Under the pieces are notes generated by a model. It was not told the origin of the DNA. It searched no databases and was given only the letters and a program-made list of their open reading frames with translations. 64,000 nucleotides of DNA, from the NCBI GenBank assembly GCA_038870635.1, contig JAVZJR010000002.1:335-64334 (forward strand). The letters are read 5' to 3'. This stretch comes from Candidatus Bilamarchaeaceae archaeon (lineage in GTDB: Archaea; Micrarchaeota; Micrarchaeia; Anstonellales; Bilamarchaeaceae). Every line of letters begins with the position of its first letter. Positions within the stretch are counted from its first letter, which is position 1. Below are positions 1,439-46,441 of this stretch, piece after piece. The translations under genes and the position numbers were made by a program.

Positions 1439-2881
1439 TTATCCTTTTACAACACCCAATGGTTTTAGTCTTGCAACTATATCGCTTATACCAGCATCCT
1501 CTACACTTTTGACAACATCGTCTATATTTTTGTAAGCATCAGGTGCTTCTTCTGCTATAACCTTAGGTTCTGTTGCTCTAACATATATTCCATCTCTATC
1601 CCATAGTTCTTTTGCAACTCTGTTGCCTTGATGCGTTCTTATTGCCTCCCCTCTGCTCATTGTTCTTCCTGCCCCATGGCAAGTTGTTCCCCAAGCAACT
1701 TCTAAACCGCGTGGATTACCTACTAAAACATAACTTGCAGTCCCCATACTACCCGGTATTATTACAGGTTGGCCGATTGATTGATATGCCCGTGGTAATT
1801 CTGGTCTTCCTTTTGGGAATGCTCTTGTTGCCCCTTTTCTATGAACTATTAATTTTCTTTTTTTTCCATCAACAACGTGCTCCTCAAACTTTGCAATGTT
1901 GTGTGCCACATCGTAGATGAGCCTTATTTCATCACCGATACCTTTACCAAAGACTTTATCAAAACTTTCGCGTGTCCAATGCGCTATAATATGCCTATTT
2001 GTAAAAGCATAATTAACAGCGCACCGCATGGCTGCAAGATAGTTTTGTGCCTCTTCTATATCAAGCGATGCATAAGCCAATTCTGGGTCAGGAAGCCATA
2101 GATTTTTCTTTCTTGCAAGATTAAGTATAGGTGGTATGCTATCGCTACATATTTGATGGCCATAACCACGTGAGCCACAATGTATCATAACTGTAACTTT
2201 TCCTTCTTCTAAACCAAAAGCCTTCGCAACTTCTGGCAAATATATTTTTTCAACAACCTGTATTTCAAGAAAGTGATTTCCTGCGCCAAGAGTGCCAAAT
2301 TGGCTTTTTCCTCTTTTTTTAGCAGTTGGGGATACTTTTTTTGGATCCGCCCCCTCAATTCTTCCATATTCTTCGCAATGTTCTTTATCCTCTTTTGTAC
2401 CATATCCTTTTTCTAACGCCCAATCAACACCTAAAACAGCAGCTTCATCTAATTCTTCATGGCTTAATTTTATCCTTCCTTCACTTCCAACACCACTTGG
2501 AACATCTTTAAAAAGCGTGTCACATATTTGCCTTATTTTTGGTTTTACCTCTTCTCTGTGAAGCGGGGTCGTAAGAAGACGTACGCCGCAATTTATATCA
2601 TACCCCACTCCACCGGGGCTTACTATTCCATCAACAGCATCAAAAGCAGCCACACCTCCTATTGGAAAACCATATCCTTCGTGTCCATCTGGCATGAGTA
2701 ATGCGTGTTTTATGATTCCAGGCAATCCTGCGACATTTTTTAGCTGGTCTAATGTTCTATCTTTTTTGACACCATCTATTATATTGTCATTAGCAAATAT
2801 GAAAGCAGGCACTCGCATATCTTTGTCCTGTTCCATTTTCCATATTGCCTTATCTATTTTTTTAAGTTGCATAATCATCAC
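1439..2881 (-). CDS. rtcB: RNA-splicing (tRNA) ligase RtcB; likely start 2872
   Basis: Motifs MPDGHEGYGFPIGG, GVGYDINCG, LGAGNHFLE, HCGSRGYGH, HRKGAT, HGAGR, EEAPDAYK. Confidence 0.97.
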   Translation of the reverse strand: MMIMQLKKIDKAIWKMEQDKDMRVPAFIFANDNIIDGVKKDRTLDQLKNVAGLPGIIKHALLMPDGHEGYGFPIGGVAAFDAVDGIVSPGGVGYDINCGVRLLTTPLHREEVKPKIRQICDTLFKDVPSGVGSEGRIKLSHEELDEAAVLGVDWALEKGYGTKEDKEHCEEYGRIEGADPKKVSPTAKKRGKSQFGTLGAGNHFLEIQVVEKIYLPEVAKAFGLEEGKVTVMIHCGSRGYGHQICSDSIPPILNLARKKNLWLPDPELAYASLDIEEAQNYLAAMRCAVNYAFTNRHIIAHWTRESFDKVFGKGIGDEIRLIYDVAHNIAKFEEHVVDGKKRKLIVHRKGATRAFPKGRPELPRAYQSIGQPVIIPGSMGTASYVLVGNPRGLEVAWGTTCHGAGRTMSRGEAIRTHQGNRVAKELWDRDGIYVRATEPKVIAEEAPDAYKNIDDVVKSVEDAGISDIVARLKPLGVVKG

Positions 2882-46255: not shown

Positions 46256-46336
46256 ATGCCTGGCGAGATTATTCTTTACTCAATACTCGTCGCGGCCGTT
46301 CTGGTCGCAACTTATCTTTTGACCAGAAAAATTTAA
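46256..46336 (+). CDS. Putative 26-aa single-pass membrane microprotein
   Basis: Hand translation MPGEIILYSILVAAVLVATYLLTRKI; TATA-like tatttaaaaa ~30 nt upstream; stop abuts tRNA-Ile. Confidence 0.5.
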   Translation: MPGEIILYSILVAAVLVATYLLTRKI

Positions 46337-46441
46337 GGGCCCGTAGCTCAGCCCGGCTAGAGCGTTCGTGCTTTATGCGACGAAACTGATAATCGGGCAT
46401 CTGAAATCGAAAGGTCTGGAGTTCAAATCTCCACGGGCCCA
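46337..46441 (+). tRNA. tRNA-Ile(GAT) with two introns: 30/31 (46369-46384) and 37/38 (46392-46405)
   Basis: Spliced arm TTCGA-CTGATAA-TCGAA; BHB at 30/31 has helix CGTT/GACG; acceptor GGGCCCG/CGGGCCC-A. Confidence 0.9.

Follow-up and report, generated by a model that had tools for sequence, protein, structure and literature searches.

The tRNA-Ile(GAU) gene described here carries two introns that are separated by a mini-exon of only seven bases, and the BHB folds at the two splice sites are mutually exclusive because U27-U28 and C32-U33 are common to both; one molecule presents one motif at a time. The reading we prefer, at a probability of about 0.6, is that a long-range helix between the D-loop and intron 2 frees the motif of intron 1 (positions 30/31), which is removed before intron 2 (positions 37/38). 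We regard it as a functional gene for tRNA-Ile(GAU), and probably an essential one, in a small archaeon of Micrarchaeota type from hot springs. The assembly comprises 859 kb at 35% G+C and is about 90% complete, and the sequencing runs containing DNA of this genome are nearly all hot-spring metagenomes; a search for runs with the locus returned no RNA run, a result that carries no information on expression. Coordinates (Table 1) refer to the window, i.e., the whole stretch of 64,000 nt that was analysed.

Table 1. Features of the tRNA-Ile(GAU) gene and the RNA ligase gene in the window.
Feature	Position	Strand	Evidence or remarks
tRNA-Ile(GAU) gene, 105 nt, mature length 75 nt	46337..46441	+	Rfam; spliced form equals intronless orthologues
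Exon 1: acceptor 5′ strand, D-arm, position 26, anticodon-stem positions 27-30	46337..46368	+	Sequence reading, orthologues
D-loop strand (positions 15-21) of long-range helix	46351..46359	+	Minimum free energy, RNAalifold, covariation
CGTT (C25-T28), 5′ strand of 30/31 BHB central helix; partner GACG at 46379-46382	46363..46366	+	Fully (100%) paired in 6 orthologues, with pairing preserved through one A-to-G change
Intron 1, 16 nt, non-canonical position 30/31	46369..46384	+	BHB geometry: central 4 pairs, inner 2, outer 2
GACG within intron 1, 3′ strand of 30/31 BHB central helix	46379..46382	+	
Mini-exon ACTGATA, positions 31-37, with anticodon GAT	46385..46391	+	Sequence reading, orthologues
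CTGA (C32-A35), 5′ strand of 37/38 BHB central helix; C32-T33 double as 30/31 outer helix	46386..46389	+	
Partner strand of long-range helix: U36-A37 and intron 2 nucleotides 1-7	46390..46398	+	Minimum free energy, RNAalifold, covariation
Intron 2, 14 nt, canonical position 37/38; relaxed hBH (bulge-helix-loop), no inner helix	46392..46405	+	Central helix 3/4 pairs
TCTG within intron 2, 3′ strand of 37/38 BHB central helix	46400..46403	+	U-U mismatch here, U-G in relatives
Exon 3: positions 38-73	46406..46441	+	Sequence reading, Rfam, orthologues
RtcB-type RNA ligase gene (Pfam match region), expected exon joiner	1442..2746	-	PF01139, 558.7 bits, E 2e-168; G000:C2:1776-3080

Gene structure

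The Rfam tRNA model (RF00005) spans the gene end to end with 48.4 bits (gathering score 29), and its alignment leaves 39 extra bases in the anticodon arm. Excision of both introns gives a 75-nt tRNA with the arm TTCGA/CTGATAA/TCGAA and restores a canonical cloverleaf. The orthologues L019 and L029 are uninterrupted 75-nt genes with exactly the anticodon arm predicted for the spliced product, a genome of the same genus (G006) also carries tRNA-Ile(GAU) without interruption, and the spliced body is identical at 71-75 of 75 positions to orthologues with an uninterrupted GAU loop. The initial annotation had placed introns of 16 and 14 nt around the mini-exon, and this structure is confirmed by Rfam, by the sequence and by L019 and L029. 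The identity set of Escherichia coli tRNA-Ile consists of GAU in a 7-nt loop, U33, A37-A38, A73, C4-G69, U12-A23 and C29-G41, and every one of these elements is readable in the spliced sequence.

The 30/31 boundary is unambiguous. Intron 2 can be placed in six slide registers that give an identical product, owing to a repeated ATCG, and a BHB arises at the 37/38 register only, both here and in 24/24 orthologues that carry intron 2 (three or four of the four central pairs form, and the 5-bp anticodon stem provides the outer helix). From the sequence alone several formally valid parses remain, so comparison with relatives decides the parse.

A DNA search of the genome, at the roughly 90% completeness of its assembly, found a single full-length match to tRNA-Ile(GAU). 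In four DNA sequencing runs the gene is identical in contigs of other samples, with zero differences inside the gene; the joined, intron-less form was not found in these contigs, which cannot reveal rare variants. This tRNA decodes AUU and AUC, which are very common codons at 35% G+C, and with a single gene copy to supply it, four cleavages and two ligations must be accurate.

ARAGORN overlooks the gene at default settings, and with the -i option it calls a tRNA-Phe(GAA) with a single 32-nt intron, a call that the orthologues contradict. Parses with other anticodons (CGA, CGG, UGA, GAA and others, taken over all one- and two-deletion parses) lack BHB geometry and do not resemble the intronless orthologues. 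A composite 37-nt intron, which would begin at the 5′ site of intron 1, end at the 3′ site of intron 2 and so skip the mini-exon, was rejected because it has only 2/4 central-helix pairs when examined by hand. It is extremely improbable that the gene is a misparsed tRNA-Phe or a decaying pseudogene, in spite of the ARAGORN -i call and of the abundance of loosely BHB-like windows in any 105-nt sequence: the Phe parse requires a mismatched stem and a shortened D-stem, an ordinary tRNA-Phe(GAA) gene is present elsewhere (C3:35582-35670), the Ile arm is fixed by the intronless orthologues, the same sequence recurs in contigs from other samples, and no other tRNA-Ile(GAU) is present in the genome at its roughly 90% completeness. 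For annotation, this is another gene missed or mislabelled by standard tRNA finders in DPANN genomes, where such errors give the false impression that an essential tRNA is absent.

The genome also carries an intron-containing tRNA-Ile(UAU) gene (G000:C1:181082-181181, minus strand; orthologues L012, L024 and L025), which ARAGORN mislabels as Ser. A tRNA-Ile(UAU) has been reported for ARMAN lineages without TiaS (PMC3239211).

Splice motifs

A BHB was defined as two 3-nt bulges around a 4-bp helix at the junctions, cut after the second bulge nucleotide, and the relaxed forms hBH and HBh′ were allowed. Intron 1 shows the strict geometry. The central helix of its motif (motif 1) is formed by C25-G, G26-C, U27-A and U28-G, i.e., four pairs including one G-U, and is flanked by bulges of C29, G30 and U on the 5′ side (expected cut after G30) and of A, A and A31 on the 3′ side (expected cut before A31). 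An inner helix of 2 bp (GC/GC) closes a 5-nt loop, and the outer helix consists of C32-G24 and U33-A23. When intron 1 was shuffled, 0.5% of 20,000 trials yielded a central helix of 4 pairs together with an inner helix of 2 pairs. Among the orthologues, the helices of motif 1 are invariant or show one-sided changes, and hence have no compensatory support.

Intron 2 shows the relaxed hBH form. The central helix of its motif (motif 2) contains C32-G, G34-C and A35-U with a U-U mismatch at U33, there is no room for an inner helix, and after removal of intron 1 the 5-bp anticodon stem serves as the outer helix. The helices initially assigned to both motifs are as described (CGTT/GACG with C32-T33 in the outer helix for motif 1, CTGA/TCTG with one mismatch for motif 2), and so is the restored anticodon stem as the outer helix of motif 2.

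Competition between the motifs, which had been suggested for one place, occurs at two. U27-U28 belong to the central helix in motif 1 and to the outer helix in motif 2, and C32-U33 belong to the outer helix in motif 1 and to the central helix in motif 2. Motif 1 also uses C25, G24 and A23, which breaks three of the four D-stem pairs. This disruption of the D-stem was not part of the initial annotation, nor were the low probability of motif 1 in the folding ensemble and the covarying helix between the D-loop and intron 2 that are described below.

Each intron contains a short copy of neighbouring exon sequence. Intron 1 ends in CGAA, which recurs in the 3′ strand of the anticodon stem, and intron 2 begins with ATCG, as does exon 3. 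Each intron is therefore able to form a decoy anticodon stem. These repeats could be a trace of intron insertion or part of the folding pathway.

Folding of the precursor

At its free-energy minimum the precursor does not adopt the cloverleaf. Bases 15-20 of the D-loop pair with bases 2-7 of intron 2, and exon bases 27-30 close on the CGAA at the end of intron 1, the mimic of the anticodon-stem 3′ strand, in a hairpin that dominates locally. A register slip of 2 nt separates the strict motif 1 from this hairpin, and the motif has a probability of about 0.001 in the free ensemble.

The cost of each motif was calculated by constrained folding, in which the motif was forced, the remainder refolded and the energy expressed in kcal/mol above the minimum; all such costs are limited by nearest-neighbour energy models, which deal poorly with 3-nt bulges and with protein-bound folds. 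In the full precursor, motif 1 costs 5.6 kcal/mol (3.9-7.7 in seven orthologues) and motif 2 costs 11.9 kcal/mol (11.9-20.7). Removal of intron 1 brings motif 2 to 5.7 kcal/mol (5.0-8.4), while motif 1 with intron 2 removed stands at 9.1 kcal/mol (5.6-9.2), no cheaper than in the full precursor. The ranking is the same in all seven two-intron orthologues tested and at 37, 50, 60 and 70 °C. Before any splicing, motif 2 retains a single pair of its outer helix, next to a junction.

Removal of intron 1 before intron 2 is the most likely order on these models, because motif 1 is cheap and motif 2 costly in the unspliced precursor. The initial annotation had stated that the 30/31 intron must go first. 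Constrained folding favours that order, in seven orthologues and from 37 to 70 °C, but the word 'must' draws on energy models only and is too strong.

A helix between the D-loop and intron 2

RNAalifold, applied to an alignment of six orthologues, predicted unprompted a 9-bp helix between the D-loop and U36-A37 with the adjoining part of intron 2 (columns 15-23 with 54-62). Together with the two outer pairs of motif 1 it makes one helix of 11 pairs, which is 93.9% paired in the six orthologues. Compensatory changes from C-G to U-A are found at two pairs (16:61 and 18:59), and two further pairs show one-sided changes that preserve a wobble; the covariation equals that of the T-stem in the same six sequences. 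Shifting the partner strand by 1-3 columns lowers the pairing of the whole counted structure (29 pairs) from 97% to 27-42%.

Comparison of the duplex energy with that of shuffled introns gave p = 0.015 for this genome (G000) and p ≤ 0.015 for G000, G001, G002, G004 and G005. The value was 0.002 in G029 and 0.03 in G007, where the complement is internal to a non-homologous 50-nt intron, and 0.09-0.15 in two genomes of genus g15, which have one internal mismatch. The helix occurs in 8/8 genomes that have the 30/31 intron, also where the introns differ (G007 and G029), though these genomes are confined to three genera and few independent events underlie the association. Among ten orthologues without intron 1, the duplex test did not find D-loop complementarity in eight; the exceptions are G005, of the same genus, and L020.

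Wherever motif 1 is part of a constrained fold, the D-loop helix is present too, stacked coaxially outside the short outer helix. It nests exactly around motif 1 and, within the limits of the energy models, makes the motif about 8-13 kcal/mol cheaper than it is in folds without the helix. As modelled, the helix would open the D-stem and extend the outer helix of motif 1; helix and D-stem can form together only as a pseudoknot. The helix and motif 2 appear incompatible because the 5′ splice site of intron 2 lies within the helix: judged from geometry, their coexistence would require a pseudoknot in which a linker of 1 nt spans a 6-bp helix, which is sterically implausible. On our reading, the helix makes motif 1 affordable and keeps the precursor in the conformation that would allow excision of intron 1.

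Proposed order of splicing and alternatives

The proposed pathway begins with an unspliced precursor in which the D-arm would not be in its cloverleaf form, and the D-loop would be paired with U36-A37 and intron 2 nucleotides 1-7, leaving G22-C25 free for the outer and central helices of the 30/31 motif. Intron 1 would therefore most likely be out first, cut by the ε2 endonuclease, with the exons rejoined by RtcB. Ligation would create the 5-bp anticodon stem, which provides the relaxed 37/38 motif with its outer helix; removal of intron 2 would follow, again by the ε2 endonuclease and RtcB. The analysis shows the structure of the gene, its mature sequence, the exclusivity of the two motifs, the covarying helix and the presence of the enzymes; the order of removal and the purpose of the long-range helix are what we infer. 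Against this order, the broad specificity of the ε2 enzyme could permit cleavage of the 37/38 motif despite a three-way junction in its outer helix.

Splicing without a fixed order, where the precursor samples both folds, the endonuclease takes either and both single-intron intermediates arise, would fit with the position of each motif several kcal/mol above the minimum in every state, with a permissive enzyme (PMC3239211) and with the departure of some introns of Cyanidioschyzon merolae in either order (PMC3728597). It is an unlikely account given that, before any intron is removed, the motifs lie 6-17 kcal/mol apart in seven of seven orthologues (subject to the energy models), and that motif 2 at this stage keeps just one outer pair next to a junction. 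The reverse order, with the 37/38 intron out first and the 30/31 intron later, is considerably more doubtful. Motif 1 would survive the loss of intron 2, since it needs just C32-U33 from downstream, but motif 2 is the costliest fold of the full precursor, and motif 1 becomes no cheaper once intron 2 and the D-loop helix are gone (5.6-9.2 compared with 3.9-7.7 kcal/mol on the same models). In C. merolae, moreover, the 37/38 motif is always processed last (PMC3728597).

What the D-loop helix is for can be stated with less assurance. Our tentative suggestion, held at somewhat below even odds, is that the 37/38 intron has been recruited, through the covarying D-loop helix, as a folding scaffold in the same RNA for its 30/31 neighbour. 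If so, one intron would be needed for efficient removal of the other, both would be locked in, and the splicing order would be hard-wired. A somewhat less probable view is that the helix is real and unrelated to intron 1, perhaps keeping the precursor in a shape unlike a tRNA and so delaying modification or aminoacylation, or being a relic of the origin of intron 2. The complementarity in G005 and L020 despite their lack of intron 1 agrees with this view, as does the geometric conflict of the helix with motif 2, of which it may be a simple competitor. Against it stand the presence of the helix in all eight genomes with intron 1, including that with a non-homologous 50-nt intron (G007) and G029, and its nesting around motif 1 in every case, with a modelled saving of about 8-13 kcal/mol. 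The covarying helix offers a concrete and mutable experimental handle.

Splicing enzymes and genomic context

By its gene content the genome has the machinery for both introns, because it encodes an ε2 EndA and RtcB. EndA is a three-unit ε2-type protein of 389 aa, encoded at L031:1207-2376 on the minus strand, of which residues 4-389 match the ARMAN-2 ε2 structure (PDB 4fz2) with E 7e-127. It keeps Y160, K161, K228, Y236, H251, R275, K282 and W384, residues that correspond to those of catalysis, bulge binding and the broad-specificity loop (ASL) (PMC12397907). In vitro, the ε2 enzyme acts on BHB substrates of the strict form and on relaxed BHL substrates alike (PMC3239211, PMC12397907). ARAGORN finds 33 tRNA genes in the genome, of which about 20 need a modelled intron.

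A second ORF with an endonuclease domain (173 aa) lies outside the window (L032:1249-1770, plus strand, equal to G000:C2 about 102149-102670). It matches the catalytic domain PF01974 with 37.4 bits and is distant from solved EndA structures (E about 3e-4).

Directly upstream of the tRNA gene, a 26-codon ORF (46256-46336, plus strand) encodes a hydrophobic peptide starting MPGEIILYSILVAAV, and its TAA abuts the first tRNA base. A TATA-like sequence (TTTAAAA) precedes its ATG by about 25 nt. In a contig of a different sample, one nucleotide of the ORF is deleted at 46315 and one is inserted at 46319, so that the frame is kept overall. The ORF could represent a genuine micro-gene transcribed together with the tRNA, or simply the leader of the pre-tRNA.

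Comparison with known systems

Adjacent introns have been described in the pre-tRNA-Pro(GGG) of ARMAN-2 (Candidatus Micrarchaeum acidiphilum), where they occur in the T-loop at 53/54 and 59/60, six bases apart (Fujishima et al. 2011, PMC3239211). The present archaeon resembles ARMAN-2 in the type of lineage, the ε2 endonuclease, the many non-canonical or multiple introns, the placement of two introns a few bases apart in one arm, and the relaxed BHL motifs, for which the in vitro cleavage data are those of ARMAN-2. Unlike ARMAN-2, the pair lies in the anticodon arm (30/31 and 37/38), with the anticodon isolated on a 7-nt exon, and the two motifs are mutually exclusive, whereas a strict motif is reported for the ARMAN-2 pair. 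A helix between the D-loop and an intron is absent from the ARMAN-2 description (PMC3239211).

Some archaea have nested introns, the last BHB of which forms only after the others have been processed (stated in PMC3728597, citing Sugahara 2007 and Tocchini-Valentini 2009). In the present gene, too, the BHB of the last intron would await removal and ligation, and the precursor is predicted to fold away from the cloverleaf. The nested multi-intron pre-tRNAs concerned are reportedly those of Crenarchaeota, which Sugahara and colleagues in 2007 and Tocchini-Valentini and colleagues in 2009 are said to have found to be processed sequentially. Crenarchaeota are, however, another phylum, and their enzyme is of the (αβ)2 type, in contrast to the ε2 enzyme here.

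RT-PCR of intermediates from the nuclear multi-intron pre-tRNAs of C. merolae shows that processing follows a fixed order in which 37/38 comes last (Soma et al. 2013, PMC3728597), and the order of removal correlates with the calculated free energy of the BHB (PMC3728597). That organism is a eukaryote whose motifs can fold independently, with order following stability, whereas here the motifs compete for the same nucleotides.

Ordered removal of nested archaeal tRNA introns and the adjacent introns of ARMAN-2 are already published, and the concept is not new. The part that may be new is the conserved scaffold between an intron and the D-loop. The locus is a compact natural test of a permissive endonuclease on overlapping substrates, and could show whether introns come to depend on one another.

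Distribution in the family

A DNA search of 60 related genomes found tRNA-Ile(GAU) orthologues in most. The 30/31 intron is present in 8/99 family genomes, which belong to three genera (4/7 in g1, 2/3 in g15 and 2/3 in g2); this count includes G029, whose 39-nt intron is missed by a 3-8 nt loop pattern, and excludes a one-mismatch match at G009:C22.

The orthologue of G029 (genus g2; L045:1329-1532, minus strand, equal to G029:C12:41675-41878) is 204 nt long and apparently contains four introns, at 30/31 (39 nt), 37/38 (14 nt), 45/46 or 44/45 (19 nt) and 58/59 (57 nt). Their removal gives a 75-nt product that is identical to an intronless orthologue at 71/75 positions. Introns 1, 2 and 4 have 4/4 central-helix pairs, and intron 3 has a relaxed motif only. 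To our knowledge, the published maximum for one tRNA gene is three introns, and the literature searched yielded no tRNA gene with four. In other genera (L010, L011, L014, L017, L018, L023 and L026), a D-loop intron of 40-90 nt accompanies the 37/38 intron. Across the family, interruptions of the tRNA-Ile(GAU) gene occur at no fewer than five different positions, and several genomes have none.
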